Shown in pieces: positions 24,124 through 52,105 of a DNA stretch of 64,000 nucleotides. The first letter of the stretch is position 1. Every line of letters begins with the position of its first letter. The DNA comes from Anaerolineae bacterium (GTDB taxonomy: Bacteria > Chloroflexota > Anaerolineae > UBA3071), in NCBI GenBank assembly GCA_029907105.1, contig JARYMM010000002.1:18992-82991 (forward strand). Direction: 5' to 3'. Below the pieces are notes generated by a model that was not told the DNA's origin, did no database searches, and saw only the letters and a program-made list of their open reading frames with translations. The position numbers were made by a program, and so were the translations under genes.

Positions 24124-26769
24124 TCAGGGAGCAAGCTCGATGGCTTTCAAGATCACATATTCACCGCGCAGAAGCCCGAAGGGGCCGCGGCGGGCGGGGA
24201 TGCGCTGGCCGTCGCTGGCCCGTTCCAGGGCGACGACGAGCCGGTAGCGGCCAGGCGGCGCGTCAGCGGGGACAGTCAGCTCGTGGCGGTCGCCCACAGG
24301 GTAATCCGTCGCCCAGAGCGAGGTGGGATAACGGCCATCCACCGGCCGGCCCGCGGCGCGGGCCACGATGCGGTCGCCTGCGTCCAGCAGTTGCAGCACC
24401 ACCAGATAGTCGTCCACGTACGGCGAGGGACGGGGACGCCAACACAGCTTGACGGGGATGACATCGCCGGGCCGCAGCCGCGTGGCCGGGCTGTAAGCTT
24501 CGAGCAGTTCGATATAGTCGAAGCGGGCCAGCGGGCGCTCGCCAGGCCTCATGGACGGCTCCTCGGGCAGGGTGATCTCCACGCCGCCCAGTTGCAGGCG
24601 ATGGCCATCGGCCACGGAGAGGCCATCTTCGGAGACCGCAGGCAGCGGTTCAGCCATGGCCGGGTCATACAGCACCAGCTCGACGCTGTACCGGCCGGGA
24701 GGCGTATCCCCAGGCACAGGCAGGCGCACAGGCTGGCGTTCAACGCCCCCCGCTGGCCAGCGGGAGGTGGTATAGAGGCTGCCCAACGGGCGCTCGTCCG
24801 GCGGCTGGCTCCAGACGCGGCCCTGGGCATCCACCAGGCGCAGCGAGGTGGCGTAGTCGGCGGCCGGAGGCTGGCGTACCTGCCAAAAGAGGGCCGTGTA
24901 CAGCGTCTGCCCGGCGGCAAGGGTGCCGCAACAGGGCGGGACGTAGAGCGTGAACAGGTCGCCGAAGGCAGCGCGGCGGGCATCGGCCGGCGGCTCAACA
25001 GCACGCTGGCGGGGCAGCACCCCCTGCACCCGCATGTTGGCCTCGCCAGTGAAGACCCGATCCTCGAACAGCTCCCCATAGGCGTCCAACAGGCCCCGGA
25101 TCACCCCCTGCGGGTCGTTGACCGTGTCGTAGATGCGGTAGTGCCACAGGCGAGGATGGGTGGCCAGGAGCAGGGCGAGCTTCTCCTTCGCCAGGTCGCC
25201 GGGCAAGGCGTAAAAGTCGGACGCCGGATCGCCCCAGCCCAGGCGGGGGTCGCCGTCAATGTGCCCTGTCTGCACGATGACCGCGCCGTCGGCGGAAGCC
25301 GCTGCTGGGGTGTAGTCGCTCAGCCGCCCGCGCCAGGCGATGGGCAACTGCAAGTAGGTCAGCAGCGCCGTGTAGCTATAGCCGGCGTTGACCAGGATGA
25401 CGTCACCGGGCCGCCACTGTTCGCTCAGCAAGCGTGCGGCGGCGCGGTGGTCGTCGCTGGCGTAGCGCGGGTCGCCCCACAGGTTGTGCAGGGAGAAGCC
25501 GGAAGCGGCGAGGATGACGGCCAGCGCGCCGACGGCCAGCGGCCGCCTCCAGCGCCGCCAGCGGAGGAGAGCCACAATGCCTGCCGCCAGGACCAGGCTG
25601 AAGGGCGGTGCGTAGGCGAAGACGTAGCGGACGTGATATAGCGGCGTGAACAAAGAAGCCAGGAAGACAAGCAGCACCGGGACGAGAGTATGGATGGCCA
25701 GGGGAAAGGAAGGAAAGGAGGGAAAGGAAGGGACGATCTCTTGCATTCCCTCCATTTCCTTCTCTTCCTTCGTTTCCCTTCTTAGAAGCCCAAGTATGTA
25801 AAGGGCAGCCGTCATGACTAAGAGCGGCCACACGCGTTGCGGTTCCACGGATTGTCCGAAGCTGAGCGCACTCCAGGTTTCCGTCAGCATGTCCCACAGC
25901 CCGGTAAAGGTGCGCCAGGGCGGCACGGGCGGGTCGGTGGCCTGCCGCCAGGCGATGGGCAGCCAGGGTGCGTACAGGAGCAGAACGGCGGCCTGGGCGA
26001 GGAACCAGGCCCGAAGCCGGAACCTGGAACCTGAAACCTGGAACCCTCCGGGCCGAGCGCCTCGGCCGACGCCTCGGCGGAGGCCCTCAGGGCGAAGCCT
26101 GGAACACGCCACTACGATGACCCATAGATTAAGGGCGACGAGGAGGAAGGCGAAGTAGTAGAGAACGTAGAGGCCAGCGGCAGCAGCGAGGACGTAAAGG
26201 ATGAGTGCGCAGCGGTCAGGGGTCAAGGGATAGGGGTTAGGGGAGGTTCCCTTTGGCTCAGAACCTGAAACCATCTGGGGGCTCACGAAGTGGATGATGC
26301 ACCGAAGACAGATCAGCCCCAGCACCGCGCCGAGGGTGTACATGCGCACCTCTTGCGCGTACCAGACGTGGAAGGGGGAGATGGCCGTGAGCGCTGCCGC
26401 CAAAAGCGCCGTCGGCTCATCGTACAGGCGGCGGCCCAGGGTGTAGATGAGCGGGATCAGCATCATGCCGAAGACGAGGGAGAGGAGCGCAGCAGCGAAC
26501 TCCAGGCCGTGGCCGTCGGCGTCGGCATGGCCGGTGGGATAGCCGAAGAGAAGCAGCCAGCCGCGCAGCAGCAGATAGTAGCCGGGCGGATGGATGTCGC
26601 CGGCGGTGTGGGCGATGAGGGCGGGCACGGGCTTGCCCGCCAGGTGCACGCTGACCGTCTCGTCGTACCAGAGGCTCTGCGCGCCGAGCCGGTGCAGGCG
26701 CAGGCCAAAGGCGGCCAGCAGGATGAGCAGCAGGATCAGGCGAGAGCGAGCAGCGGCATGGCGAACCAT
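24124..26769 (-). CDS. GT39/GT83-family (ArnT/PMT-like) membrane glycosyltransferase with a large C-terminal extracytoplasmic domain
   Basis: N-terminus LILLLILLAAFGLRLHRLGAQSLWYDE...DIHPPGYYLLLRGW. Multiple transmembrane helices. 881 aa. Contains an in-frame F1 repeat insertion. Confidence 0.65.
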   Translation of the reverse strand: MVRHAAARSRLILLLILLAAFGLRLHRLGAQSLWYDETVSVHLAGKPVPALIAHTAGDIHPPGYYLLLRGWLLLFGYPTGHADADGHGLEFAAALLSLVFGMMLIPLIYTLGRRLYDEPTALLAAALTAISPFHVWYAQEVRMYTLGAVLGLICLRCIIHFVSPQMVSGSEPKGTSPNPYPLTPDRCALILYVLAAAAGLYVLYYFAFLLVALNLWVIVVACSRLRPEGLRRGVGRGARPGGFQVSGSRFRLRAWFLAQAAVLLLYAPWLPIAWRQATDPPVPPWRTFTGLWDMLTETWSALSFGQSVEPQRVWPLLVMTAALYILGLLRRETKEEKEMEGMQEIVPSFPSFPSFPLAIHTLVPVLLVFLASLFTPLYHVRYVFAYAPPFSLVLAAGIVALLRWRRWRRPLAVGALAVILAASGFSLHNLWGDPRYASDDHRAAARLLSEQWRPGDVILVNAGYSYTALLTYLQLPIAWRGRLSDYTPAAASADGAVIVQTGHIDGDPRLGWGDPASDFYALPGDLAKEKLALLLATHPRLWHYRIYDTVNDPQGVIRGLLDAYGELFEDRVFTGEANMRVQGVLPRQRAVEPPADARRAAFGDLFTLYVPPCCGTLAAGQTLYTALFWQVRQPPAADYATSLRLVDAQGRVWSQPPDERPLGSLYTTSRWPAGGVERQPVRLPVPGDTPPGRYSVELVLYDPAMAEPLPAVSEDGLSVADGHRLQLGGVEITLPEEPSMRPGERPLARFDYIELLEAYSPATRLRPGDVIPVKLCWRPRPSPYVDDYLVVLQLLDAGDRIVARAAGRPVDGRYPTSLWATDYPVGDRHELTVPADAPPGRYRLVVALERASDGQRIPARRGPFGLLRGEYVILKAIELAP
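26001..26107. repeat. family F1 element (half hairpin plus conserved 43-bp core) inserted in-frame in the GT39 gene
   Basis: Heptamers CGGAACC TGGAACC TGAAACC TGGAACC are followed by the core CGGGCCGAGCGCCTCGGCCGACGCCTCGGCGGAGGCCCTCAG. The core is identical at 42/43 positions to 53820..53862. It encodes ...LRPEGLRRGVGRGARPGGFQVSGSRFRLRAW... in the glycosyltransferase. Confidence 0.8.
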
Positions 26770-26855: not shown

Positions 26856-26894
26856 GAAAATGTCACCCTGAGCGCAGCGAAGGGTGACATTTTC
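26856..26894. repeat. perfect 14-bp inverted repeat GAAAATGTCACCCT-(11)-AGGGTGACATTTTC, related to the interior of family F2
   Basis: The loop GAGCGCAGCGA matches CCTGAGCGCAGCGAA in the 17199 element. Confidence 0.6.
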
Positions 26895-26962
26895 AACTTC
26901 AGGGTGGCCCGTTGGGCCATGACGACTGCCTCCAAGTTGGCTGCACAAGTCTATACACAAAT

Positions 26963-26991
26963 TTGACAAAGCTTTGACATTGTGCTATAAT
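26963..26991 (+). promoter_or_regulatory. consensus sigma70 promoter TTGACA-17-TATAAT (TGc extended -10)
   Basis: The -35 is at 26963..26968 and the -10 at 26986..26991. It drives the 27090 gene via a ~90-nt leader. Confidence 0.6.
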
Positions 26992-27089
26992 GATGGCCGA
27001 GTTCAGGCGAGCGCCATGTGTTCTGGCCACAGCCCACAGGACGCCCAGGGCGCTCCAACCGCCGACCGCGCACTGTTCAGGAGGATGAC

Positions 27090-27713
27090 ATGAGAATACT
27101 ACGCCTCGCCGCTTTTCTGCTGCTGGCCACAGCAATGTTGGCCGGAGTCTCTCCCGCCTATGCCCATGTGCCCTACATCGAGCGGGAAGACTACACGGAG
27201 GAGGCTCCCGCCGTTGTGCGTAACGTCGAGCAGTCCAAGGCGTTCTATGCCTGGCTGCAATCGGCCGATGACGTGGACTATTATCGCCTGCAAGTACAGG
27301 GGCCGACCCGGATCTTCGCCCAGGTCATTGTCCCCGTCTGCCCCGGCTACGAGGAGTTCCGGCCCAGTTTCGCCGTGATCGGCCCGGGTCTGCCCGATCC
27401 CACCGAGGAGCTGCCGGTGCTGTTGCCCGAAGGCTATGGCGCTATCATCGTGCCCAACGGAACCCCCGGCCAGCCGCGGGAGAGCTTCTACGAGCCCTTT
27501 GGCGGCAAATCCTATTACGACGGCCCCCTGTTCGACCAGACGGTCGAGATGCCCGGCGATTGGCAACTGATCGCCTGGGACCCCTACGGCATGGGCGGTG
27601 ACTACGTCACTGTGGTGGGGGCCGGAGAGCAGTTCGCACCCGCTGACATCCTGCGCTCCATCCACAACACGCTGATCATCCGGCGGAACGGTGAATTACA
27701 CACCGACTGCTGA
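27090..27713 (+). CDS. secreted hypothetical protein (signal peptide)
   Basis: Starts MRILRLAAFLLLATAMLAGVSPAYA. GGAGGA ribosome-binding site. Confidence 0.55.
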   Translation: MRILRLAAFLLLATAMLAGVSPAYAHVPYIEREDYTEEAPAVVRNVEQSKAFYAWLQSADDVDYYRLQVQGPTRIFAQVIVPVCPGYEEFRPSFAVIGPGLPDPTEELPVLLPEGYGAIIVPNGTPGQPRESFYEPFGGKSYYDGPLFDQTVEMPGDWQLIAWDPYGMGGDYVTVVGAGEQFAPADILRSIHNTLIIRRNGELHTDC

Positions 27714-27786
27714 GATCCCGGACCGTGGACAAAGCAGGAACCGCATCTGTCCCGTTAGAGGTAGAAGACGGGTTTCTGGGGCTATC

Positions 27787-29109
27787 ATGACCTACACGAC
27801 GCCGATGTTCAATCTGAAAGCTGTCGTCGAAGAGACCGGCATCACCGCCCACACGCTGCGCGCCTGGGAACGGCGCTATGGCCTGCCGCGGCCGGCGCGC
27901 AGCGAAGCTGGACACCGCCTCTATTCGCAGCGGGACATTGATGTGCTCAAATGGCTGATAGCCCGCCAACAGGAAGGCCTGAGCATCGGGAGAGCAGCGG
28001 AATTGTGGCAGGCGCTGGAAGCCGAAGGCCGGGAACCTCTGCAGGCGATGCCATTGCTTCCTCCAGCCGCCATGCCGGCTGGAGGAAAGCTCGCCGAATT
28101 GCGCCAGGCTTGGGTCTCGGCCTGCCTGGCCTTCGACGAAGCCCGCGCCGAACAGGTGGTCACGGGGGCTTTCGCCCTCTACGGGCCGGAGATGGCCTGC
28201 CTGGAGGTGCTGCAGAGGGGGCTTGCGCAGATCGGCGAGGCCTGGTACGCTGGCCAGGCCAGCGTGCAGCAGGAACACTTCGCCACCGCGCTGGCCATGC
28301 GCCGCCTGGACGGATCGGTCCTGGCCACGCCGCCACCGACACGGGCTGGCCGCATCCTGGTTGCCTGCCCGCCGGAGGAGGAACACGCCTTCAGCCTGCT
28401 GCTGGCCGCCTTCCTGTTGCGGCGACGGGGTTGGGATGTGCTCTACCTGGGTGCCAATGTGCCCATCGCCCGCCTGGAGACGGCCATCGCTGCTCGCCGG
28501 CCGCAACTGGTGCTCTCAGCGGCCCAACAGTTGCCCACAGCGGCCACCCTGCTGGAGATGGCGCGCTTCCTGTACGGGGAGCAGATTCCGCTGGCCTTTG
28601 GCGGGTGGATCTTCAACCGCCTGCCGGCATTGCCTGCCCGCATCCCCGGTCACTTCCTGGGCCAGACTATCCCGCAGGGAGTGCAGGCAGCGGAGCAATT
28701 GATGCTGGCGCCCCGCCCGCTGCCTCAGGCCGGGGGTCAGGAGGTCGCCTTCGAACACGAGAGCAGCCAGGAGCGGCGTCGGGCGCTGGCCCACTACCGT
28801 GAGCGCCAACCGCGCATCGAGGCGGAGCTGTGGCAGAACCTGGCCACGATGGGCATGGCCGAAAAGGACCTGACCATGGCCAACGACGCGCTGGCGCGCC
28901 ATATCAGTGCTGCCCTGATCCTGTGCGAGATGAGTTTTCTCGACACCTGCCTGGATTGGGCGCAGGGTCTGTTGCACAACCATGGCCTGCCCTTGGACGT
29001 CCTGTCAAACTATCTGCGCGCTTACCATCGAGCCGCCCAGGCACATCTGGATGAACGCGCCACGCCTATCGTCAATTGGCTGGCCACACAATTATCACAG
29101 GAGAAATAG
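27787..29109 (+). CDS. carH: MerR-family regulator with a cobalamin (B12)-binding domain, CarH/LitR-type light sensor, with ~130 extra C-terminal residues
   Basis: N-terminal MerR helix-turn-helix (ITAHTLRAWERRYGLPRPARSEAGHRLYS). B12-binding Rossmann motif ILVACPPEEEHAFSLLLAAFLLRRRGWDVLYLGANVP. Confidence 0.75.
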   Translation: MTYTTPMFNLKAVVEETGITAHTLRAWERRYGLPRPARSEAGHRLYSQRDIDVLKWLIARQQEGLSIGRAAELWQALEAEGREPLQAMPLLPPAAMPAGGKLAELRQAWVSACLAFDEARAEQVVTGAFALYGPEMACLEVLQRGLAQIGEAWYAGQASVQQEHFATALAMRRLDGSVLATPPPTRAGRILVACPPEEEHAFSLLLAAFLLRRRGWDVLYLGANVPIARLETAIAARRPQLVLSAAQQLPTAATLLEMARFLYGEQIPLAFGGWIFNRLPALPARIPGHFLGQTIPQGVQAAEQLMLAPRPLPQAGGQEVAFEHESSQERRRALAHYRERQPRIEAELWQNLATMGMAEKDLTMANDALARHISAALILCEMSFLDTCLDWAQGLLHNHGLPLDVLSNYLRAYHRAAQAHLDERATPIVNWLATQLSQEK

Positions 29110-29111
29110 AA

Positions 29112-29897
29112 ATGCGAAAAGACATCGTCAGACAATGGGTCAATGTGCTGGCATTGGTCGTGACCTTCGTTATCAACTCGTTGGCCGCGGCCCTGCCCCT
29201 GGGCGGGCTGACCACGGGAGAGATATCCGATCTCTTCCCTGTCTACTTCACGCCCGCCAACTATGTGTTCAGGATCTGGTTCCTGATCTACGCGGCACTG
29301 TTTGGTTTCATCGTCTACCAGGCTCTCCCTTCGCAACGGGAGAACCCACGTCTGCGCCGCGTCGGCTACCTGTTTGTCCTCAGTGCTCTGGCCAATACCG
29401 TCTGGCTGCTGCTGTGGCACTTCTGGCGCTTCCCGCTCAGCCTGGTGGCCATGATCGTGCTGCTGCTGACGCTGATCGTCATCTACCTGCGCCTGGGCAT
29501 CGGCCGCACCAGGGTCAGCACGGCCGAGACCTGGCTGGTGCGCGTGCCCTTCAGCATTTACCTGGGCTGGATCACCGTGGCCACCATCGCCAACGCCACC
29601 ACAGTCCTGCAGTATTTCAACTGGAGCGGCTGGGGCCTTAGCCCGCAGGTCTGGACGGTGATCATGCTGGCCGCGGCCACGGTCATCGGCGCGCTGGTGA
29701 GCCTGAGGCGGGGCGATGCGGCTTACATGCTCGTCCTCGTCTGGGCCTTCGCCGGCATCGCCGTGAAGCATGCGGCCACGCCCGTGGTGGCCATCGCCGC
29801 CTGGGTGGCCGCGGCGCTGGCCGCCGTCATGCTCGTTGTGGGCGTGCTGCTGAAAAGGGCGAGAGGCGGGGGACGAGAGGCGAGAAGCGAGGCGTGA
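29112..29897 (+). CDS. TspO/MBR-like tryptophan-rich membrane protein with a C-terminal extension
   Basis: Five or more transmembrane helices and high Trp content. FTPANYVFRIWFLIYAALFG and YLGWITVATIAN resemble TspO TM1 and TM5. AGGAGA ribosome-binding site; the start follows the carH stop by 2 nt. Confidence 0.5.
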   Translation: MRKDIVRQWVNVLALVVTFVINSLAAALPLGGLTTGEISDLFPVYFTPANYVFRIWFLIYAALFGFIVYQALPSQRENPRLRRVGYLFVLSALANTVWLLLWHFWRFPLSLVAMIVLLLTLIVIYLRLGIGRTRVSTAETWLVRVPFSIYLGWITVATIANATTVLQYFNWSGWGLSPQVWTVIMLAAATVIGALVSLRRGDAAYMLVLVWAFAGIAVKHAATPVVAIAAWVAAALAAVMLVVGVLLKRARGGGREARSEA

Positions 29898-30035
29898 GAG
29901 GCGAGGGGCAAAGATGAGCATCGTCCTGCTGGAAGGCCAGCGGGGTGTGCCGCGCTGCCTGCGGGAACTGGGCTCACCTTTCGTTTCCCGGAAGCGGAGA
30001 GGGCCCTGTGCGACGTGCTTGGAGCAGCGTGACAG

Positions 30036-31457
30036 ATGAGCACGGCGATCTGGTGGGCGCGGCGCGATCTGCGTCTGGCCGACAACCAGGCCCTGCAAGC
30101 GGCGCTGGCCCACGCCGGGCAGGTGGTCCCCGTCTTCGTGCTTGACCCGGTGCTGCTGACGGCGCCCGAAGCCGGGGCGAAGCGCGCGGCCTTCCTCTTC
30201 GGCGGGCTGCGAGCGCTGGATGCGCAACTGCGCGCCCGCGGCAGCCGGCTGATCATCCGCCAGGGCGACCCGCGGGACGAGCTGGCCGCGCTGCTCGCCG
30301 AAAGCGGTGCCACGGCCATCTTCGCCGAGGAGGACCCCTGGCCCTACGGCCGGCAGCGGGACCTGCGCGTGGCGGCGACGTTGCCCCTGCACCTGGTCGG
30401 CGGCCTCACCGTACAGCCGCCGGGGGCTGTGCTGAAGGCCGACGGCAATCCCTACACCGTCTTCACCCCCTTCAGCCGGCAATGGCAGGCCCTGCTGTCG
30501 TCCCAAGAGCCCACACCCCTTCCGGCGCCCGAGCGGCTGGCCGCGCCGCCTGCTGTGGCCAGTCTGCCCATACCGGAGAAACCGGCCTTGCCTGCGGCAG
30601 TGCCCTTTCCGCCTGGCGAGGGTGAAGCCTGGAAGCGGCTGCGCGGTTTCGCCGTGGGCGAAAATGCACCCATCTATGACTATGCGACGCGGCGCGACCG
30701 GCTGGACCTGGAGGGCACGTCGCGCCTTTCGCCGTACCTGCGCTTCGGCATGCTCTCTGCCGGCCAGGCTGTGGCTGCGGCGCGCCAGGCGATGGACGCT
30801 GCCCCGAACGCGGCCGCCCGCCGGGGTGCGGAGACCTGGCTCAACGAGCTCATCTGGCGCGAGTTCTACATACATATCCTGCACCATTTCCCATACGTGC
30901 TGGAGCAAAGCTTCCGCGCCGACCTGCGGGCCATTCCCTGGGCCAACGACGAGGGGGACTTCGCCGCCTGGTGCGCCGGGCGCACCGGCATCCCCGTGGT
31001 GGATGCCGCGTTGCGCCAGTTGGCCGAGACCGGCTGGATGCATAACCGGGCGCGCATGATCGTGGCTTCGTTCCTGACCAGGGATTTGCTGATTGACTGG
31101 CGCTGGGGGGAACGCGTTTTCATGCAGCACCTGGTGGATGGCGACCCGGCGGCCAACAACGGCGGCTGGCAGTGGACGGCGGGCACCGGCAGCGACGCCG
31201 CGCCCTACTTCCGCCTCTTCAACCCCACCCTGCAGGGTCAAAGACACGACCCGCAGGGGGCCTACGTGCGGCACTGGCTGCCGGAACTGGCCCGCGTGCC
31301 CGAACGCTTTATCCACGAACCTTGGAAAATGCCGCTGGAGATGCAGCGCGCAGCCGGCTGCATCATCGGCGTGGACTACCCCGCCCCCATCGTGGATCAC
31401 CGCTGGGCCCGCGAGAGGGCACTGGACGCCTATGGTGCCGCTCGTCGCAGGATGTGA
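30036..31457 (+). CDS. phr: deoxyribodipyrimidine (CPD) photolyase, class I
   Basis: Starts [21 protein letters not shown]-terminal FAD-binding domain motifs WREFY and [13 protein letters not shown]. Confidence 0.9.
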
Positions 31458-31566
31458 AGCTCGAGCAGAAGGATCGGAACGGACAGGCTCAATCACTTAT
31501 CCCGCGATTGCGCTGATAGATCAGGAGGCGGCCAGGAGATCGCCTCTGAAGGACGGAGACAGAAAA

Positions 31567-32571
31567 ATGATTCCCAATCAGTGGTATGTCGTCCTGGATT
31601 CCAGCCAGGTCAAAGAAAGGCCCGTGGGCGTGACGCGCCTGGGCGAGAAGCTGGTGTTCTGGCGAGACCGAAGCGGGCAGGTGAACTGCTTCGGCGACCG
31701 CTGCGTACACCGCGGTGTCCAACTGAGCAAGGGCAAGGTCCTGGATAACGGCTGTCTGCAGTGCCCATTCCATGGCTTCCAGTACGATGCCTCTGGCCGC
31801 GTCATCATGATCCCGGCCAACGGCAAGAACATGCCGGTGCCTGAGCGCTACCGGGTGCATCGCTATCCCACTCACGAGGCACACGACTTCATCTGGATCT
31901 GGTGGGGCGAGGAGCCGCCCACAGAGTTGAAGCCGCCGCGCTTCTTTGACGACATAGACGATAGCTTCTGCTATGGCAAAGCCTATGATCCCTGGAACGC
32001 CCATTACTCTCGCGTCATTGAAAACCAACTCGACGTGGTGCACTTGCCCTTCGTCCACTACAACACCATTGGACGGGGCGGTCGCACATTGGTGGACGGC
32101 CCTGGTCTGCAGTGGGTAGACGACGACATGTTCTTCGTCTACGTCTTCAACCGTGTGGACGACGGCAGGCCTCCGCGCAGGCCCGATGAGGTGCCTACCC
32201 CCGACCCCACACGGGAGTACAAACTGGAGTTCATCTTCCCTAACCTGTGGCAGAACTACATCCATAGAGATATGCGCGTGGTGGGTGCCTTCGTGCCCGT
32301 GGACGATGAGCATACCCTGTTGTACCTGCGCTACTACCAGAGGTTCCTGACCATGCCCATCCTGGGAAACCTGGTCAGCCGCCTGGCCATGCCTTTCAAC
32401 CTCTACGTCGCCCATCAGGACCGGCGGGTGGTCATCACCCAGCAGCCCAAGGCCTCCGCCCTGGTCATGGGCGAAAAGCTGATCCAGGGCGACCATCCCA
32501 TCGTGGCCTACCGCAGACGACGGCAGGAACTGATGGAAGCAGCGGCGCGAGGCAAGGGAGACAAAGTGTAG
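31567..32571 (+). CDS. Rieske [2Fe-2S] non-heme-iron oxygenase (small PAO/KshA-like type)
   Basis: Has CVHRG...CPFHG (Rieske motif) and DVVHLPFVH (mononuclear iron site). Confidence 0.8.
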   Translation: MIPNQWYVVLDSSQVKERPVGVTRLGEKLVFWRDRSGQVNCFGDRCVHRGVQLSKGKVLDNGCLQCPFHGFQYDASGRVIMIPANGKNMPVPERYRVHRYPTHEAHDFIWIWWGEEPPTELKPPRFFDDIDDSFCYGKAYDPWNAHYSRVIENQLDVVHLPFVHYNTIGRGGRTLVDGPGLQWVDDDMFFVYVFNRVDDGRPPRRPDEVPTPDPTREYKLEFIFPNLWQNYIHRDMRVVGAFVPVDDEHTLLYLRYYQRFLTMPILGNLVSRLAMPFNLYVAHQDRRVVITQQPKASALVMGEKLIQGDHPIVAYRRRRQELMEAAARGKGDKV

Positions 32572-32590
32572 GGGTGTGTGGAGAGATCGC

Positions 32591-33796
32591 ATGAGGAATA
32601 TGAGAAGAGAACTGGTACTGATCCTGCTCTTCGTCTTCATTGACGTCTTGGGCTTCAGCCTGATCCTGCCGCTGCTGCCCTTCTACGCCGAGACCTTCGC
32701 CGCCACCCCCACCACGGTGGGCCTGCTGCTGGGGGCCAACGCCTTGACCCAACTCATCGGGGCACCGATCATCGGACGGCTCTCCGACCGCTACGGTCGG
32801 CGGCCGTTGCTCATCCTGAGCATCGCCGGCACCCTGGTCGGATTCATCATGCTGGGCCTGGCCAATTCCCTGGCCATGCTCTTCGCCAGCCGCATCCTCG
32901 ATGGCTTCCTGGGCGGCAATGTCTCCCTGGCCCAGGCCTACATCAGCGACGTGACAGACAGCAAAGAGCGAGCCAGGGGGCTGGGGCTGATCGGCGCTGC
33001 CTTTGGCCTGGGCTTCATCATTGGCCCGGCTCTGGGCGGGACGCTGGCCAGAAACGGGAACTACGCCCTGCCTGCCCTGGTTGCCTCGGCATTCTCGTTC
33101 CTCAACCTGCTCGGAGTACTCCTGTGGTTGCCCGAGTCGTTGCCGCCAGAAGAGCAGGCACGGCGGGCCGCAGAGCCTCGTGCCGCCTTCACGGCGCGGG
33201 CGCTGTGGGAGGCCCTGCAATTGCCTTGTGTGGGCCCTCTTTTGCAGAGCCAACTCGTTTTCGCCCTGGCCTTTACCACCTTCGAGACGATCTTTTCCCT
33301 CTTCGCCCAGCAACGCCTGGCCTTGAACGCCCAGCGCACCGGTTATGTGCTCACCTATGTGGGCGTTCTGGTGGTGCTGGTACAGGGAGTGGGCATCCGT
33401 TTCCTGGTGAGACGGTTCAACGACAAGCAACTGGTCTTCGGCGGAGCGATTCTGGGCCTCTTCTCCCTGCTCGCCTGGGCGCTCACGCCCTCGCTGGCCG
33501 TGCTCCTGGTGGTGCTGGCCCCGCTGGCTCTGGCTTCCGGCGTGCTGCGCGTCTCCATCAGCAGCGCGCTGACCAAGTCCGTCTGGCCGGAGGAGGTGGG
33601 TGGGGTGTTGGGACTCTCCGCCTCCCTGGGAAGCCTGGCGCGCGTCGTCTCGCCCACCGTGGGTGGGTTCCTGCTCAGCCAGGTGGGGACCGCCGCGCCG
33701 GGGATTCTGGGGGCCTTGTTAATGGGCTGGCTGATCTACTACACGCGGAAGCGAGTGCTCTTCGTGCCCGACCTGCAATGCCCGGCGCCGCGCTGA
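32591..33796 (+). CDS. MFS transporter
   Basis: 12 predicted transmembrane helices. GRLSDRYGRRP loop motif. Confidence 0.8.
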   Translation: MRNMRRELVLILLFVFIDVLGFSLILPLLPFYAETFAATPTTVGLLLGANALTQLIGAPIIGRLSDRYGRRPLLILSIAGTLVGFIMLGLANSLAMLFASRILDGFLGGNVSLAQAYISDVTDSKERARGLGLIGAAFGLGFIIGPALGGTLARNGNYALPALVASAFSFLNLLGVLLWLPESLPPEEQARRAAEPRAAFTARALWEALQLPCVGPLLQSQLVFALAFTTFETIFSLFAQQRLALNAQRTGYVLTYVGVLVVLVQGVGIRFLVRRFNDKQLVFGGAILGLFSLLAWALTPSLAVLLVVLAPLALASGVLRVSISSALTKSVWPEEVGGVLGLSASLGSLARVVSPTVGGFLLSQVGTAAPGILGALLMGWLIYYTRKRVLFVPDLQCPAPR

Positions 33797-33916
33797 GGTA
33801 ACGGCCACTTTTTCCAGAAGGGAGAGAAACGATGAAATGGATAGACGTATTGGAGGAAACCCAATTCATCTTCCCGGTCAAGATCGAGGCCGGGCGCGTG
33901 TGGGGGGTGTGAGCTC

Positions 33917-34528
33917 TTGCCTGGGGCCGTGTTCCTCTGGTCGCTGTTGGGTTTTCTTTGCGGCGCGCTTCCCTTCTCGCTGTGGATAGGCCATCTGATC
34001 GCCCGCACTGACATCCGTCGCTACGGTGATGGCAACCCCGGTGCTACCAACGCCTGGCGGGCCGGCGGGTGGCGGGCGGGAGTCCCGGCGAGCCTGCTGG
34101 ATTATCTGAAGGGGGTGGCGCCGGTGTCGCTGGCCTGCTACGGCGCCGGCCTCAGCGGTTGGGCCCTGCTGCCGGTGGCCCTGGCCCCGGTCCTGGGCCA
34201 TGCCTTCTCCCCGTTCCTGGGCTTCCGGGGCGGCAAAGCCCTTGCCGTCACCTTTGGCATCTGGACAGGGCTGACCTTGTGGGCGGGGCCGACCATGCTG
34301 GGCCTGGGCCTGGCCCTTGGCGCTCTCATCAACTCCGCCGATGCCTGGTCAGCGCTCTTCGGCCTGCTGGCCCTTCTGAGCTACCTGGTGCTCTCACATG
34401 CCCCGGCAACGTTCCTGGCCATCTGGGCGGGGAACCTGGCCATCTTTCTCTACAAGCACCGGCAGGACCTGAGAGCACCGCTCTGTATCCGCCCCTGGCT
34501 GCGCAAGCTGCTGAAGAGGTCCCCGTGA
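33917..34528 (+). CDS. plsY: glycerol-3-phosphate acyltransferase PlsY
   Basis: Has RYGDGNPGATNAWRAGG (GSGNxGATN-type motif). TTG/GTG start. The TGA stop overlaps the GTG of the next gene. Confidence 0.8.
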   Translation: MPGAVFLWSLLGFLCGALPFSLWIGHLIARTDIRRYGDGNPGATNAWRAGGWRAGVPASLLDYLKGVAPVSLACYGAGLSGWALLPVALAPVLGHAFSPFLGFRGGKALAVTFGIWTGLTLWAGPTMLGLGLALGALINSADAWSALFGLLALLSYLVLSHAPATFLAIWAGNLAIFLYKHRQDLRAPLCIRPWLRKLLKRSP

Positions 34529-35688
34529 GTTCCTCCTTCTGGCTACAGCATCAGGTGAGCATCGCCGTCTTCCTGGCCGTTCTGCTTCTCATCGTCCTGA
34601 GCAACCTGCGGGCGCTGCGTCCGCTGGGCACCTATCCTGCTCCTCCCCGCATGCCGCGGGTCTCGATGCTCCTCCCCGTGCGCGACGAGGCGGAGACAGT
34701 CGTCTCCTGCCTGCGCTCGCTGCTGGCCCAGGACTATCCCGATTTCGAGGTGCTGGTGCTGGATGATGGCTCCACTGATGGGACAGGAGATCGCCTGGCC
34801 GAACTGCAGGCGCAAAACCGGCGGTTGCAGGTATTGCCAGGACAGCCGCTGCCAGAAGGGTGGCTGGGCAAGCATTGGGCCTGTCAGCAACTGGCGCAGA
34901 AGGCCTCGGGTGACCTGCTCCTCTTCACCGACGCCGATACCCGCCACGGGCCGGGCATGCTGCGGGCAGCCGTGGCCGCCTTGCTGGCCGAGGAGGCGGA
35001 CCTGATGACGGCGTTTGTGCAGCAAGAGGTCATCTCCTGGGGGGAGCGGCTGACGGTGCCCGTCGTCTTCTGGTGTTTCTTCTCCGTGCTGCCCATAGGC
35101 CTGGCCCATCGGCTGCGCCTCCCCGGTCTGTCCCTGACCAACGGACAGTTCATGCTCTTTCGACGGGCAGCCTATGAGGCCATCGGCGGGCACGAGGCGG
35201 TGCGGGCCAACCCCGTAGACGACATCGCCCTGGGCCGACGGGTGAAAGAAGCAGGGCTGCGCTGGCGGCTGGTGGATGCCTTGGAGTTCGTGCGCTGTCG
35301 GATGTATCGCTCCTTTGGCCAGGCGCTGGAAGGGTTCGGCAAGAACCTCTTCGCCGCCTTTGACTTTCGGCTGCTGGAGTACCTGTTCGTCTGGCTCTGG
35401 ATGATGTGGATCGTCTGGGAGCCGCTGGTCGTGCTGATGCTGAAGGCGACGGCGATGTCGCCGCCGAAGCCTATGCTCTGGCCGGCAACCCTGGCCGTTG
35501 CCGAGACCCTGGCCCTGTGGCTCATCGTCCTCAGCCGCCTCCGCTTCCCGCGCGTTCTGGCCTTCCTCTATCCGCTCAGTGTGTCCCTGCTCCTGGGCGT
35601 TGCCCTCCGCTCCCTGGCCTGGACGGTGGCCGGCAGGGCCGCCTGGAAGGGCCGGCCGCTGCCCCGTCAGCGGGTGAGACTGGTGTAA
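34525..35688 (+). CDS. family 2 glycosyltransferase with an N-terminal transmembrane helix
   Basis: Has LVLDDGSTDGT and DAD motifs. GTG start overlapping the plsY stop (GTGA). Confidence 0.75.
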   Translation: MSSSFWLQHQVSIAVFLAVLLLIVLSNLRALRPLGTYPAPPRMPRVSMLLPVRDEAETVVSCLRSLLAQDYPDFEVLVLDDGSTDGTGDRLAELQAQNRRLQVLPGQPLPEGWLGKHWACQQLAQKASGDLLLFTDADTRHGPGMLRAAVAALLAEEADLMTAFVQQEVISWGERLTVPVVFWCFFSVLPIGLAHRLRLPGLSLTNGQFMLFRRAAYEAIGGHEAVRANPVDDIALGRRVKEAGLRWRLVDALEFVRCRMYRSFGQALEGFGKNLFAAFDFRLLEYLFVWLWMMWIVWEPLVVLMLKATAMSPPKPMLWPATLAVAETLALWLIVLSRLRFPRVLAFLYPLSVSLLLGVALRSLAWTVAGRAAWKGRPLPRQRVRLV

Positions 35689-35692
35689 GCCG

Positions 35693-36613
35693 TCAGAGGT
35701 TTCCAAGCAGATCCCCCAGCTCCTCCTCCCAGAGATCCCTGAAGGGCATGAACTGCCTTTCAGTGAACTCGGCGTTCACCTTTTGCAGGTAACCGGCCAC
35801 ATCGAGCTGCGGCATGGCCCGGGCCAGGTGGTCCATCTTGGCCTCCCATTCGGCGATGAGCCTGTCGGCGCGCCGGGCCAGGTCTGCAAGATCCAGACCC
35901 AGACGGAACATGTGGTCGAGCCTGCGCATCAGGTCGTACCAGGCCTTGAAGTCTTCCTCCATGGCCACCTGTTGCACGAGCACCGCAGGCTGGGAGAAGT
36001 CATAGGCCGGAACGAAGGCATAGAAGCTGAAGAACTCGATCCCCCTCGCCTCTGCCTTATCTGCCAGGTACGTGCTGATGGTGGCGCCACCCTCGTAGTC
36101 GGAAAAGCGGACAGCGTACTCGGCCAATTCGGCCTTCAGCGCCGGCAGGCTGTAGATGCAGGAAATGTCCCTCTCCTTGTTGTAGGGAACCGGCGCATGG
36201 ACGCCTCCCAGGGCCGCCACCCGTTGGATGCCCAGGGCCTCCACAGCGTCGAAAAACGCCTCCGCATAACGCTCCTCGTTCAGGTGAGGCTCCTCTCCCA
36301 GGAAGATGACGAACCCCTTTCGATCATCACCGGCATAGAAGAACTCGTTGCTTCTGCGCTCTAACGATTCCCGGTACCCCTCGCTGAGTTTGACCACCGG
36401 CCGGAGAAAGTGGTGCGCGCCGGGGAGCTGGAACAGATAGAACCCCTCCGGGGCCATTTCCCCGATGCGTCTGGCCGAGGTCTGTTCGATCAAGTACCTG
36501 GGCAAACCGGAGGACACATTGCCGGCATCTGCCCATTGCTGCCAGCCGGCGATCATGTACTGCGCAGCCTGGGGAAACTCCCAGAGTTGGATCACATCGC
36601 TCATTGCCATCAC
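35693..36613 (-). CDS. PAC2-family (proteasome-assembly-chaperone-like) protein
   Basis: The N-terminal YMIAGWQQWADAGN resembles the PAC2 GW.DAG motif. Weak call. Confidence 0.45.
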   Translation of the reverse strand: MMAMSDVIQLWEFPQAAQYMIAGWQQWADAGNVSSGLPRYLIEQTSARRIGEMAPEGFYLFQLPGAHHFLRPVVKLSEGYRESLERRSNEFFYAGDDRKGFVIFLGEEPHLNEERYAEAFFDAVEALGIQRVAALGGVHAPVPYNKERDISCIYSLPALKAELAEYAVRFSDYEGGATISTYLADKAEARGIEFFSFYAFVPAYDFSQPAVLVQQVAMEEDFKAWYDLMRRLDHMFRLGLDLADLARRADRLIAEWEAKMDHLARAMPQLDVAGYLQKVNAEFTERQFMPFRDLWEEELGDLLGNL

Positions 36614-38255: not shown

Positions 38256-39224
38256 ATGAAGCGATCCCTGCGTATCGTGTTGACCCTGTTAGCCGTCCTG
38301 CTGGCCATCCTGGCCATAGGCCCTTTTCTGGTGCCCGTGCCCGCGCTGCAGGATACCGTCCCGCCGCAACAACTGGCCGACCCCGACAGCCGCTTCATCG
38401 AGGTGAACGGCCTGACCGTCCATTACAAGATGGCCGGTCAGGGCGAGCCGGCGCTGGTGCTTTTGCACGGCTTCGCTGCCAGCACCTTCTCCTGGCGAGA
38501 GGTCATGGCCCCGCTGGCCGAGCTCGGCACCGTCGTGGCCTTCGATCGGCCTTCCTCCGGCCTGACCGAACGGCCCCTGCCCGGCGATTGGGTCGGCGAG
38601 AGTCCCTATAGCCGGGAGGCTCAAGCTGACCTCACCATCGGCCTGCTGGACGCCCTGGGCATCGGACAGGCGGTGCTGGTGGGCAACTCTGCCGGCGGCA
38701 CCATCGCTGCCCTCACCGCCCTGCGCTATCCGCAGCGCATCAGGGCATTGGTGCTGGTAGATGCGGCCATCTACGAGGGAGGCGGCTCCCCCGCCTGGTT
38801 GCGTCCGCTCTTCCACACGCCGCAGATGCGCCATCTTGGCCCGCTCATCGCCCGCACCATCCGCAGGCAGGGCGAGGAGCTGCTGCGCCTGGCCTGGCAC
38901 GATCCCTCCCGCATCACCGCCGAGGTGATGGATGGCTACCGCGAGGCTTTGCAAGCGGAGAACTGGGATCGCGCTCTGTGGGAGCTGACTCTGGCCAGCC
39001 GTGCTTCCGACCTGCCGGAGCGGCTGGACGAACTCACGTTGCCGGTGCTGGTCATCACCGGTGACGACGACCGCATCGTGCCCCCCGAACTGAGCGTGCG
39101 CCTGGCCGGGGAGCTGCCCAATGCTGAACTGGCGGTGCTTGCCAATTGCGGCCATGTGCCGCACGAGGAATGCCCGCAGCCCTTCCTGCAGGCGGTGACG
39201 GCGTTTCTGGATAGACTCCCGTAG
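38256..39224 (+). CDS. alpha/beta-hydrolase
   Basis: Has HGFAAS and GNSAGG nucleophile-elbow motifs. N-terminal transmembrane/signal segment. Confidence 0.75.
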   Translation: MKRSLRIVLTLLAVLLAILAIGPFLVPVPALQDTVPPQQLADPDSRFIEVNGLTVHYKMAGQGEPALVLLHGFAASTFSWREVMAPLAELGTVVAFDRPSSGLTERPLPGDWVGESPYSREAQADLTIGLLDALGIGQAVLVGNSAGGTIAALTALRYPQRIRALVLVDAAIYEGGGSPAWLRPLFHTPQMRHLGPLIARTIRRQGEELLRLAWHDPSRITAEVMDGYREALQAENWDRALWELTLASRASDLPERLDELTLPVLVITGDDDRIVPPELSVRLAGELPNAELAVLANCGHVPHEECPQPFLQAVTAFLDRLP

Positions 39225-48305: not shown

Positions 48306-48357
48306 CTCCTCAGTTTAGAATGGTTATCGTTTAATGAGGCTTGTCGTGAGGCAGACG

Positions 48358-48828
48358 ATGCTGACAACTGAGGAGATGTGTCGGAAGTTTCGGGCCCTGG
48401 GGCTGAAGGTGACGCCCCAGAGGCGCTTCATCTTCCAGGTGCTGGAGGGAAACCCCCATCACCCCTCGGCCGAGGCGGTTTACGCAGAAGTGCGTGCTTT
48501 TATCCCTGAGATCTCTCTGGCTACCGTGTACAACACGCTGCGCGAGCTGGTGGACCTGGGTGAACTGCGCGAGTTGAACCTGGGGGATGGCAAGAGCCAT
48601 TACGATCCCGACCTGAGCAACCACCAACATCTGGTGTGCGTGCGCTGCCACGCCGTCGCAGACGTGACCTGTGATATCGGTGGCCTTACCCTGACTCCGG
48701 AGCAAAGCCGGGGCTACCGACTTCTGGGCACTGATGTGACGTTCTACGGCCTGTGCCCCGCCTGCCAGCAGCAGGCGGATTGGCCGGGGCAGGCTTTGCA
48801 CCTGTGGGGGGTATCACCCGCAGCCTGA
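48358..48828 (+). CDS. perR: Fur-family metalloregulator, PerR-like
   Basis: Has a KVTPQRRFIFQVL DNA-binding helix and the HHxHxxCxxC metal site (NHQHLVCVRCH). Position heads a peroxide-stress operon. Confidence 0.7.
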   Translation: MLTTEEMCRKFRALGLKVTPQRRFIFQVLEGNPHHPSAEAVYAEVRAFIPEISLATVYNTLRELVDLGELRELNLGDGKSHYDPDLSNHQHLVCVRCHAVADVTCDIGGLTLTPEQSRGYRLLGTDVTFYGLCPACQQQADWPGQALHLWGVSPAA

Positions 48829-48861
48829 ATGCACATTACGATCGAAAGAAAGGATGACCCA

Positions 48862-49356
48862 ATGGCAAGAACAGATTTCGATTACATGAGCGGGGAGCAA
48901 TACCTGGAGGAGATCCTTCGCCAGGCGATCCGCTTCGAAGAGGAATCGTACGCCCTTTACACCAACGCCATCCGGATCAGCACGATGGCCGATGCCCGGG
49001 CCATGCTGGAGGACCTGGCTGCGCAGGAGTTGGGGCACAAACAGAAATTGCAGCGCCTTCAGGCACAGGGAGTCGCCAACCTTGTCCCTGTGGTGAGGAC
49101 GGCGGAGGCTCGGGACCTCAAACTGGCCGAGGTCTTGCAGGCGCCCTCGGAACTGGATGAAGAAGCCGACCTGCAGGACGTATTACTGGTGGCCATGCAG
49201 CGAGAGAAATCCACTCGCGAGTTCTATCTGAAGCTGGGACAGGTCACCGAAGAAGGGCCGGTCAGGAGCCTGTTCGATTTTCTGGCCGAAGAGGAGTTGA
49301 AGCATAAGCAGCGGGTCGAGTCGCTCTACGAGCAACTGGTCTACCGGGAGTTCTGA
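48862..49356 (+). CDS. rubrerythrin-like ferritin-fold diiron protein (no rubredoxin domain)
   Basis: Has two E...ExxH pairs ([30 protein letters not shown]). Confidence 0.6.
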
Positions 49357-49411
49357 TCGGAAAACGGCCAATGCGATTGGCCTTCTACCCTTTACACGAG
49401 GAGAACATAGC

Positions 49412-49573
49412 ATGAAGAAGTACGAATGTCTCGCTTGCGGCTACATTTACGATCCTGAGCTGGGCGATCCCGATGGGGGCATCGCTCCCGGCACCGCTTT
49501 CGAGGACTTGCCCGACGATTGGGTCTGCCCTCAGTGCGGTGTGGGCAAGGACATGTTCGAGCCCCTGGATTGA
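49412..49573 (+). CDS. rub: rubredoxin (53 aa); not present in the supplied ORF track
   Basis: Sequence [53 protein letters not shown] has two CxxCG knuckles. GAGGAG ribosome-binding site. Confidence 0.85.
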
Positions 49574-49590
49574 GTGAGGCCGGCGAAAGC

Positions 49591-50793
49591 ATGTCAGCCA
49601 TTGCCATCAAACCCGACGTCTATTGGATCGGTGTCAACGATCGGACGACCGACCTTTTTGAGGGCTTGTGGCCGATCTCGCAAGAGGGCGTTTCCTACAA
49701 CGCCTACCTCATCAACGACGAGAAGAAAGCGCTCATAGACCTGGCCAAAGCCTTCAAGGCGGACGAATTCTTCGACCACATCGGCGAAGTGGTGGATCCC
49801 TCGCGGCTTGACTACGTCATCATCAACCACATGGAGCCCGACCACACCGGCGTCTTGAACACGCTGCGCCGCATTGCCCCGCAGGTGACCCTTCTGGGTT
49901 CGGCCAAGACGAAGGAGATGCTGGCCTCTTTCTACGGTGTCACGGAAAACGTCGAGGTGGTCGGCGATGGCGATACCCTCTCTCTGGGCCACAGCACATT
50001 GCAGTTTTTCTCCACGCCCTTTGTGCACTGGCCGGAGACGATGATGACCTACGAGACCGGGCGGCGCATCCTTTTCTCCTGCGACGCTTTCGGTGGCTAC
50101 GGCGCGCTGCGCGGGGCCATCTTCGACGACGAGTACCCCGACCTGGGCTTCTATCAGCGGGAGGCCCTTCGCTACTATGCGAACATCATCGCCGGTTTCA
50201 GCAAACGGGTGCTGATGGCCATCGAGAAGCTGGCCGATGTGCCCGTGGAGATCATCGCCCCTTCGCACGGGCTGATCTGGCGGCAGCATCCCCAGCTCAT
50301 CGTCAACCTTTACCGCCAATGGGCCGAGTATGCCGAGAGCGGTGGCGAGGTCGGCGTGACCCTCGTCTACGGGTCCATGTACGGCTACACGGAGAAGATG
50401 ATGAATGCGGTGGCGCAAGGCATCTCCCGCGCTGGCGTGCCGGTGGAGATTTTCGACGCCGCCAGGACGCACGTCAGCTACATCCTGCCCTCCCTGTGGG
50501 CCCGGATCGGCGTGATGGTCGGCGCTCCGACCTACGAGGTCTCCCTGTTTCCTCCCGTGGCCCAGGTGCTGGACATGGCCGTGCACAAGCGCGTACGGCA
50601 TAAGAAGGCAGCCCGGTTCGGCAGCTACGGCTGGAGCGGCGGCGCGCAGAAACACTTCGAGCGCCTCGTTGAATCGGCAGGCTGGGAATTGCTGGACGTT
50701 TTCGAGTTCGTGGGCAGCCCTTCGCCGGAGGAGCTGGAGCAGGGCGAGGAATTCGGTGCCCGCTTCGCTGCACGGATCAGGGAGGGGCGATGA
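49591..50793 (+). CDS. fprA: flavodiiron protein (FprA; rubredoxin:oxygen/NO oxidoreductase)
   Basis: N-terminal metallo-beta-lactamase fold with HxExDH (HMEPDH) and a C-terminal flavodoxin domain. 400 aa. Confidence 0.85.
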   Translation: MSAIAIKPDVYWIGVNDRTTDLFEGLWPISQEGVSYNAYLINDEKKALIDLAKAFKADEFFDHIGEVVDPSRLDYVIINHMEPDHTGVLNTLRRIAPQVTLLGSAKTKEMLASFYGVTENVEVVGDGDTLSLGHSTLQFFSTPFVHWPETMMTYETGRRILFSCDAFGGYGALRGAIFDDEYPDLGFYQREALRYYANIIAGFSKRVLMAIEKLADVPVEIIAPSHGLIWRQHPQLIVNLYRQWAEYAESGGEVGVTLVYGSMYGYTEKMMNAVAQGISRAGVPVEIFDAARTHVSYILPSLWARIGVMVGAPTYEVSLFPPVAQVLDMAVHKRVRHKKAARFGSYGWSGGAQKHFERLVESAGWELLDVFEFVGSPSPEELEQGEEFGARFAARIREGR

Positions 50794-50811
50794 CGGTTGT
50801 CACATAATGTC

Positions 50812-52029: not shown

Positions 52030-52077
52030 AGCGATGGTTTCCCTCTGGAAGCACTGTTTCCACCTGTGTGGTTGGTA

Positions 52078-52105
52078 GTAGGACAACTGCGAGCAGTTGT
52101 CCTAC
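52078..52105. promoter_or_regulatory. perfect 28-bp palindrome GTAGGACAACTGC-GAG-GCAGTTGTCCTAC between nror and rbr, flanked by direct repeats AGCACTGTTTC (52050 and 52143)
   Basis: Read directly. No U-tract follows, so this is not a classical terminator. Confidence 0.5.

Follow-up and report, generated by a model that had tools for sequence, protein, structure and literature searches.

CarH and the class I LitR proteins, as described from Thermus thermophilus, Myxococcus xanthus, and Bacillus megaterium, are repressors that depend on adenosylcobalamin (AdoCbl) and are inactivated by light. CarH operators consist of three or four tandem 11-bp repeats of the form nnnnTnnACAn that overlap the promoter (PMC9304148). 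Photocobilins bind AdoCbl together with biliverdin and carry a C-terminal five-helix globin that covers the edge of the corrin and enables red light to set off B12 photochemistry (PMC10979010). A survey of photoglobins listed an architecture joining a MerR-type helix-turn-helix (HTH), B12-binding_2, B12-binding, and a photoglobin, with an Anaerolinea sequence among its members, and stated that no locus of this kind had been studied (Schneider et al. 2021; PMC8717448), and we found no experimental study of a MerR-fused photocobilin in the later literature that we searched. Here we describe a regulator of this architecture, and the block of genes in which it lies, in a 64,000-nucleotide stretch of an Anaerolineae bacterium genome (contig JARYMM010000002.1; the window, throughout). 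The CarH-controlled light regulon is already known as a kind of system, computational work had predicted the architecture in 2021, and for enzyme-linked members the chemistry of photocobilins was shown in 2024. New here are a concrete, model-based candidate for a DNA-binding photocobilin whose operator and promoter can be identified, evidence for use of the CarH-type repeat operator throughout this Chloroflexota family, and a predicted accessory regulon of a long TspO, a Rieske oxygenase, a major facilitator superfamily (MFS) transporter, a secreted His-protein, and a PlsY/GT2 pair, with links to heliorhodopsin. We consider it likely that the block, positions 26948-35688, is a light-derepressed photoprotection operon.

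The regulator gene and the modules that it encodes are placed as follows.

27787-29109, plus strand: regulator, 440 aa, MerR plus B12-binding_2 plus B12-binding (Pfam/NCBIfam)
27787-28023, plus strand: MerR-type winged HTH, regulator residues 1-79 (MerR_1 at 1.3e-15; aligned to T. thermophilus CarH, TtCarH, 5C8D)
28081-28671, plus strand: cobalamin-binding domain, regulator residues 99-295 (four-helix bundle and Rossmann module)
28762-29106, plus strand: predicted five-helix photoglobin-type domain, regulator residues 326-440 (AF2 model and Foldseek)

The best solved relatives of the regulator are TtCarH structures (3WHP, 5C8D; E 2e-28), and we judged conservation in an alignment of 48 homologues that are 53-82% identical. 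The recognition-helix motif RxWERRY, defined for CarH (PMC9304148), is found as LRAWERRY at residues 24-31, and the stretch from T23 to R30 is invariant. Residues W131, E141, H142, and H177 of TtCarH align to W153, E163, H164, and H200, so that the four-helix bundle contains W153-x9-E163-H164 and the Rossmann module contains E198-x-H200; G150, E163, H164, E198, and H200 are invariant in 48/48 homologues, and W153 is kept in 46/48. The Wx9EH motif of the four-helix bundle caps the adenosyl group, and H177 of TtCarH, the counterpart of H200, is the lower-axial, cobalt-ligating His. An earlier note on this DNA, made from the letters alone, had proposed a CarH/LitR-type regulator and had singled out the cobalamin-binding His as the residue to look for; H200 is present and invariant, as are E198-E-H200 as a motif and the GG at 272-273. 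The regulator therefore shares with CarH a winged HTH that bears RxWERRY, a four-helix bundle containing Wx9EH, and a Rossmann module that holds the axial His, and by sequence it is a CarH/LitR-type AdoCbl photoreceptor that would bind AdoCbl. It differs from CarH in having Tyr154 in place of His132 of TtCarH and in about 145 extra C-terminal residues that are predicted to form a photoglobin domain, giving 440 aa and a third module where CarH and class I LitR have two modules and ~280-330 aa.

The extension had been noted before as an unexplained tail of about 130 aa; it is real, somewhat longer (about 145 aa), and finds an explanation in a photoglobin-type fold. Its conservation throughout the 120 best regulator homologues, all of which are 425-484 aa long, makes it a trait of the family. 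An AlphaFold (AF2) model built on the 48-sequence alignment (mean pLDDT 90) has five long helices in residues 326-439. Foldseek searches of the Protein Data Bank (PDB) with this model matched the photocobilins SasPcob (8J2W, 8J2X) and AbPcob (8J2Y) over 334-352 aligned columns, with a target-normalised TM-score (TMt) of 0.78-0.80 and a query-normalised TM-score (TMq) of 0.61, whereas full-length CarH structures were matched (E ~1e-14) in their HTH and B12 parts only, at a TMq of 0.41, and CarH entries limited to the cobalamin-binding domain gave a TMq of 0.39-0.41. Because the B12 part accounts for ~200 of the ~330 photocobilin residues, a TMt of ~0.8 requires that the globin module and its placement are superposed too; a match confined to the cobalamin-binding domain could reach a TMt of ~0.6 at most. 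In the model the regulator thus resembles photocobilins in its bundle of four helices, its Rossmann fold, and its C-terminal five-helix globin and in their mutual arrangement, and it is unlike them in that its output is a DNA-binding domain, not a diguanylate cyclase or protein partners. We conclude from the model that the C-terminal extension is a photoglobin-type domain and that the regulator is a MerR-fused photocobilin and a candidate for carrying two chromophores.

Photoglobin helix 3 carries a C/S/T-x-x-D motif with a hydrophobic residue ~31 positions on (PMC8717448), and the Asp that holds the bilin is D49 of photoglobin and Asp270 of SasPcob. The regulator family has the motif AAL-x-L-G-D, in which [T/A/S..]378-L-G-D381 fits C/S/T-x-x-D; of the 48 homologues, 43 have Asp381, 45 have L410, and all have Y413. 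This invariant Tyr lies 32 residues past the Asp (compare D83/Y115 of phycocyanin). By spacing and helix position, though not by a residue-level structural alignment, position 381 presumably corresponds to the bilin-contacting Asp270 of SasPcob. In AbPcob, changing this Asp to His lowers the affinity for biliverdin (PMC10979010), and the window regulator has Glu at 381, which together make its bilin binding uncertain. For this one protein we put bilin binding at, or a shade below, an even chance.

Several observations weigh against reading the regulator as a CarH-like, two-chromophore photoreceptor that governs a light operon. In the classic CarH B12 motif, D/ExHx2G/P-x41-SxT/V-x22-27-GG with the axial His, the G/P position is occupied by Ser203 (S in 30/48 homologues and G in 16/48), the regulator has SAA where SxT/V is expected, and the 'GxxH' signature (PMC11796333) reads ExxH. 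The salt bridge R176-D201 of the TtCarH dimer is not kept (E199/N224), and the oligomeric state may therefore differ. The NCBIfam CarH equivalog model NF052513 scores 140.9 bits against a cutoff of 400 and covers residues 10-248 only. For the C-terminal extension, no family match was found in Pfam or NCBIfam, no match to PDB sequences was found by phmmer or with profiles of residues 296-440 and 240-440, and hhalign gave none to a phycocyanin alpha sequence (an approximate query). With all of these searches negative and no detectable sequence similarity between the globin part and the solved photocobilins, the photoglobin match is one of fold. The window regulator has Cys380-Glu381 where 43/48 homologues have Asp381. 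Finally, crt and haem oxygenase genes were looked for in the 64-kb window and none was found. We file the regulator as one that presumably works like CarH, not as a CarH orthologue.

Some of these points would also suit a B12-binding or B12-independent MerR repressor that does no light sensing of its own, whether CarA-like, like LitR of classes II-V with their partner photoreceptors, or a sensor of cobalamin availability, with the C-terminal domain as a docking or oligomerisation module. The non-canonical Rossmann motif without GxxH, the Glu at the presumed bilin position, and the missing sequence-level match of the C-terminal domain to solved photocobilins all fit such a protein, and B12 photochemistry can be lost within the family, as it has been in LitR classes II-V (PMC9758184). 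However, an intact Wx9EH together with the B12 motif is what separates light-sensing CarH from B12-independent CarA (PMC9304148), and in this family Wx9EH and the axial His are intact and essentially invariant. In addition, the neighbours of the regulators, described below, are those of a classic light regulon (photolyase, crtB/crtI, DUF1295, and a short-chain dehydrogenase/reductase, SDR). We regard a regulator without light sensing of its own as very improbable.

The strongest promoter of the region coincides with a candidate operator.

26948-26980, plus strand: candidate operator of the CarH type, made of three 11-bp direct repeats in tandem that fit nnnnTnnACAn (motif search)
26963-26991, plus strand: sigma-70 promoter, TTGACA and TATAAT separated by 17 nt, the -10 extended by TG (12/12 consensus matches)

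The three repeats are AGTCTATACAC, AAATTTGACAA, and AGCTTTGACAT, with the -35 element inside the second, and the -10 is covered by a fourth, degenerate repeat (26981-26991). In the T. thermophilus operator, the second repeat likewise contains the -35 (PMC9304148). A candidate operator of three tandem nnnnTnnACAn repeats over the -35 is thus a further feature that the window has in common with CarH systems. The pattern ACA-N8-ACA-N8-ACA occurs once in the 64 kb, at 26948-26980, against 0.09 expected. Within the 10 kb scanned for promoters, six promoter-like sites were found against 1.2 expected in shuffles; the site at 26963-26991 is the best of these and the only one with 12/12 matches. Relaxed operator scans of the window returned only weak 8/9 sites (16053, 29086, 49394, 26863 on the minus strand, and 6228 on the minus strand) with few matches at T5, which we treated as chance, and no second operator-like site was found within the block.

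Candidate operator and promoter stand upstream of the gene for a secreted protein (27090), not directly upstream of the regulator. The earlier note had proposed 27714-27790 as a site of regulator binding; the 73-nt gap before the regulator holds no tandem TnnACA repeats, only a weak minus-strand hairpin. An activator mechanism of the MerR type is unlikely, since the promoter spacer has the optimal 17 nt and the repeats are direct, with no palindrome in an overlong spacer. The divergent intergenic region also contains a perfect inverted repeat of 14 bp (GAAAATGTCACCCT / AGGGTGACATTTTC, 11-nt spacer, 26856-26894), some 70 bp upstream of the -35; it is unique in the window and could be the site of a second regulator or a REP-like hairpin.

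To place the candidate operator in the wider family, we fetched 80 Chloroflexota loci along with the regulator alignment and required at least 8/9 of the ACA positions of ACA-N8-ACA-N8-ACA. At this threshold the motif is present in 35/82 loci, and its density in the 250 bp upstream of the regulator is 1.08/kb compared with 0.064/kb elsewhere, a 17-fold enrichment. Repeat position 5, which lies outside the search pattern, is T in 66% of upstream sites and in 33% of background matches (T makes up 26% overall), and A is enriched at repeat positions 1, 2, and 11 of the upstream sites. In two loci (L052 and L063; related loci carry such labels below) the repeats are found on the other strand, pointing towards a divergent TspO-like gene. 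We take these sequence patterns as evidence that a CarH-type repeat operator is used across the Chloroflexota regulator family.

The genes beside the regulators were counted in 66 further loci, all encoding a regulator with the photoglobin domain, with homologues of the window genes sought within ±10 kb and open reading frames (ORFs) clustered within ±8 kb. Photolyase homologues lie beside the regulator in 28/66 loci, MFS homologues in 16/66 (48-56% identity, often as the next gene), TspO-like homologues in 12/66 (nine of them as immediate neighbours), homologues of the secreted protein (sec231) in 5/66, and Rieske homologues in 4/66, with the PlsY-like/GT2 pair in several. ORF clustering added crtB (phytoene synthase) in 24 and crtI (phytoene desaturase) in 23 of the 66 loci, a P450 in 17, DUF1295 in 16, an SDR of DUF1731 type in 14, lycopene cyclase and DegV in 13 each, DUF4345 in 10, and heliorhodopsin in 5. 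As in CarH systems, the family-wide regulon takes in photolyase and carotenoid genes, and we conclude that it is the classic CarH/LitR light regulon enlarged by recurrent uncharacterised members. In its cargo the window itself departs from CarH loci, having a long TspO, a Rieske oxygenase, an MFS transporter, and a secreted protein instead of crt genes.

Such clustering might have no regulatory meaning, the block being merely a set of unrelated housekeeping genes beside a MerR regulator that controls only itself. By our own estimate, a single-copy gene falls by chance within ~16 genes of the locus in ~0.4% of genomes, or in ~0.3 loci among 66. Genes of these families are found again and again next to homologous regulators, in dozens of independent Chloroflexota genomes, so that the linkage is more than chance, and the candidate operator sits on the block's only strong promoter; meaningless clustering is scarcely credible to us. 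The recurrence of photolyase, TspO-like, Rieske, and MFS homologues beside the regulators makes common light control a well-founded reading. On this point the earlier note, which had suggested shared control, is upheld, with the CarH-type operator on the block promoter and not where it had been placed.

Individual loci illustrate how the set is reassorted. The closest relative, L085, has the order sec231-regulator-TspO-SDR-photolyase, at identities of 95% for the secreted protein, 81% for the regulator, 89% for the TspO-like protein, and 90% for the photolyase; its regulator is clearly less conserved than the flanking genes, and an SDR/DUF1731 gene is inserted between the TspO-like and photolyase genes. 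L086 has photolyase-Rieske-MFS, L083 has DegV-DUF3159-DUF4345-DUF1295-regulator-(Lactamase_B/rhodanese)-Rieske, and L084 has TruD-TspO-DUF4345-Rieske-PlsY-heliorhodopsin. A complete Anaerolineae chromosome, CP070818.1 (L001 and L002), encodes two MerR-photocobilin paralogues of 436-440 aa, in the contexts DUF1295-regulator-SDR and amino-oxidase-regulator-PlsY-GT2-P450 (L002). A plain CarH of 327 aa (L001:4462-5445) lies 2.5 kb from the first paralogue and has its own three-repeat site at L001:5530.

Heliorhodopsin genes stand in the regulator gene strings of L025 (12506-13531), L034 (9161-9931), L056 (11368-12147), L065 (6571-7353), L066 (9141-9923), and L084 (10667-11437). They lie directly upstream of the regulator in L034 and L066 and directly downstream in L056, and in L084 the heliorhodopsin gene adjoins TspO-like, DUF4345, Rieske, and PlsY-like genes. 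A search of the 64-kb window gave no heliorhodopsin gene. Frequent neighbours of heliorhodopsin genes are MerR regulators, photolyase, SDR, and alpha/beta hydrolase (PMC11109279). An alpha/beta hydrolase at 38256-39224 of the window is 67% identical to a hydrolase found at most 8 kb from the regulator in seven related loci, and also in L084; it may be part of the same conserved neighbourhood, despite two intervening genes on the opposite strand.

In the window, which has a GC content of ~65%, the remaining genes of the block and its two flanks are arranged as follows.

24124-26769, minus strand: glycosyltransferase gene, divergent left flank
27090-27713, plus strand: secreted protein, 207 aa, first gene of the block (no Pfam/NCBIfam match)
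29112-29897, plus strand: TspO/MBR-related long membrane protein, 261 aa (starts 2 nt past the regulator stop)
30036-31457, plus strand: class I-type cyclobutane pyrimidine dimer (CPD) photolyase, 473 aa (DNA_photolyase and FAD_binding_7)
31567-32571, plus strand: Rieske [2Fe-2S]/mononuclear non-haem iron oxygenase alpha subunit, 334 aa (Rieske and VanA_C)
32591-33796, plus strand: MFS transporter with 12 transmembrane helices, DHA1, Tet-like (MFS_1; the ORF opens at GTG 32576)
33917-34528, plus strand: PlsY-like acyltransferase, 203 aa (G3P_acyltransf domain)
34525-35688, plus strand: membrane GT2 glycosyltransferase, HpnB/CruG-like (Glycos_transf_2; GTG start)
35693-36613, minus strand: PAC2-family gene, convergent right flank

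The genes that the earlier note had named all lie on the plus strand where it put them, and Pfam and NCBIfam agree with its families apart from minor corrections, among them the start of the Rieske gene (correctly ATG 31567). The 2-nt step from regulator to TspO-like gene, which it had also remarked on, is exact (stop 29109, start 29112). Its limits of 26963-33796 were drawn too narrowly: they enclose a first gene that it had left unnamed, and the block runs 1.9 kb further, to 35688. The result is eight genes head to tail on the plus strand with opposite-strand genes on both flanks. A PAC2 gene also follows the Rieske-MFS pair in L086 (L086:3785-4690) and is thus a conserved neighbour.

How far transcription from the promoter at 26963-26991 extends bears on how much of this cargo answers to light. 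Intergenic gaps of 138 nt (29898-30035), 109 nt (31458-31566), and 120 nt (33797-33916) leave room for promoters, and the first two, which precede the photolyase and Rieske genes, could hold promoters missed by a sigma-70 scan. Related loci are mosaic, with some of the genes divergent or several kb from the regulator. It could therefore be that only the secreted protein, regulator, and TspO-like protein are under the operator, the other genes having their own constitutive or differently regulated promoters and sharing a conserved order only. Yet the sigma-70 scan found no promoter-like site with at least 10/12 consensus matches in any of the three gaps, a sequence scan saw no plus-strand terminator-like site between the block genes, and the block contains no second operator-like site. 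The block is, moreover, strictly co-directional and bounded by opposite-strand genes at both ends, and its families recur beside the regulator far above the ~0.3 loci expected. We hold control limited to the first three genes to be possible but unlikely, and favour co-transcription of all eight.

Taking together the observed gene families, motifs, and fold matches, the operator-like site on the promoter, the synteny, and the motif enrichment, we infer the following sequence of events for a light-derepressed operon. In the dark, the regulator would bind AdoCbl through His200 under the Wx9EH cap and oligomerise, and its MerR-type heads would occupy the three 11-bp repeats over the -35 and exclude RNA polymerase. 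Light would break the Co-C bond, the oligomer would fall apart, and the block would be transcribed: the secreted protein, the regulator, the TspO-type protein, the CPD photolyase, the Rieske oxygenase, the MFS exporter, and probably the PlsY-like and GT2 proteins. With the regulator gene inside its own operon, the circuit would be autoregulated. The photoglobin domain, which in the model sits against the B12 domain in the manner of photocobilins, may widen the range of colours to which the switch responds.

The photolyase carries PF00875 (1e-43) and PF03441 (FAD_binding_7; 1e-92). Its best NCBIfam models are the E. coli-type PRK10674 (422 bits) and the 8-hydroxy-5-deazaflavin-type TIGR03556 (407 bits), both under their equivalog cutoffs and well above the DASH and plant cryptochrome models. 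A second UV-repair gene lies 25 kb away: a 603-aa ORF at 898-2709 of the window has a UvdE (UV damage endonuclease) domain in residues 50-255, while its long C-terminal part is unassigned, and there is no operator-like site in its vicinity.

The TspO-like protein has the five-transmembrane-helix TSPO fold as its core and three extra C-terminal helices, making eight long helices. TSPO/MBR proteins such as RsTSPO and BcTSPO are tryptophan-rich, porphyrin-binding membrane proteins of canonically ~150-160 aa, and the window protein differs from them in its 261 aa and three more helices. It scores 22.0 bits against PF03073 (gathering threshold 24), most of its close homologues carry a precomputed PF03073 match, and no match to it was found among PDB sequences, its identity to solved TSPOs being 13-20%. 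In Rhodobacter, crtK/tspO sits in the carotenoid cluster; a link between TspO and CarH/LitR was not found in the literature that we searched. One could go further and imagine that the regulator, as a DNA-binding photocobilin carrying AdoCbl and a linear tetrapyrrole, has its second ligand supplied, removed, or reported by the TspO-type protein, so that the colour of light and the load of porphyrin or photosensitiser would be integrated before repair and detoxification genes are switched on, and that the same tetrapyrrole, or photoproducts of pigments, might be what the Rieske and MFS proteins act on. We consider this scheme quite improbable.

The Rieske protein has the CxH..CxxH and DxxHxxxxH motifs, and its homologues are 68-78% identical across Anaerolineae. 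An assignment to the PAO/Tic55/KshA type, as first envisaged, did not hold: there is no PaO (PF08417) match, KshA_C reaches 19 bits where the cutoff is 23.3, and the catalytic domain is of the VanA_C type (61 bits). Its closest solved structures are SxtT/GxtA, DdmC, and NdmA/B. With these alpha3-type VanA_C monooxygenases, and with VanA, it has in common the motifs, a length of ~335 aa, and the absence of a beta-subunit gene; it is unlike them in that the similarity amounts to only ~88 bits, in the N-terminal half. No reductase or ferredoxin partner gene was found in the block. The MFS protein has an MFS_1 domain (6e-56), and we rejected its identity as a tetracycline pump (tet_MFS, 198 bits against a cutoff of 475).

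At the 3' end of the block, the PlsY-like protein scores 102 bits with TIGR00023, under the cutoff of 137, and the GT2 protein scores 172 bits with HpnB and 119 bits with CruG, both under their cutoffs. CruG is a carotenoid 2'-O-glycosyltransferase. The GTG start of the GT2 gene overlaps the PlsY-like stop by 4 nt, and the products of this translationally coupled pair could be acylated glycosides, either of carotenoids or of hopanoid-like lipids.

The secreted protein, preceded by GGAGGA upstream of the ATG at 27090, has a signal peptide ending in AYA; its family, which is uncharacterised, comprises 834 representative clusters (E at most 1e-3). Its homologues adjoin regulator homologues in L011, L014, L050, L051, L061, and L085. 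Residue H26, directly past the AxA signal-peptidase site, is invariant in 30 sequences and would therefore be the N-terminal residue of the mature protein. An N-terminal His recalls histidine-brace metal sites; no second invariant His was seen in the 30 sequences. The protein also has a DVDYY motif, which resembles pre-peptidase C-terminal domains.

Elsewhere in the window, at 48334-53498, lies an oxidative-stress string of the kind typical of oxygen-sensitive bacteria, with a Fur-family regulator, a rubrerythrin, a flavodiiron-type protein (ODP plus flavodoxin), an NAD(P)H:rubredoxin-reductase-like protein, a rubrerythrin with a rubredoxin-like domain, and a peroxiredoxin.

What is understood of B12-based light sensing comes from three or four CarH proteins, and for photocobilins only the control of enzymes has been demonstrated to date. 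Against this background the locus offers a concrete candidate for a DNA-binding photocobilin, with a defined promoter, a three-repeat candidate operator, an apparently autoregulated gene, and a cargo that is compact. Should the second pigment prove real, the regulator family would be a gene switch in a single protein that spans green to red light, which is of interest for optogenetics. Its members number in the thousands in Chloroflexota (Anaerolineae, Ardenticatenaceae, Caldilineaceae, and others), bacteria that are abundant, mostly non-phototrophic, and difficult to culture. The family would give the long TspO proteins, the ~330-aa Rieske oxygenases, the DHA1-type MFS transporters, and the secreted proteins with an N-terminal His their first functional context, namely light, and it would tie these families to the gene strings that contain heliorhodopsin.

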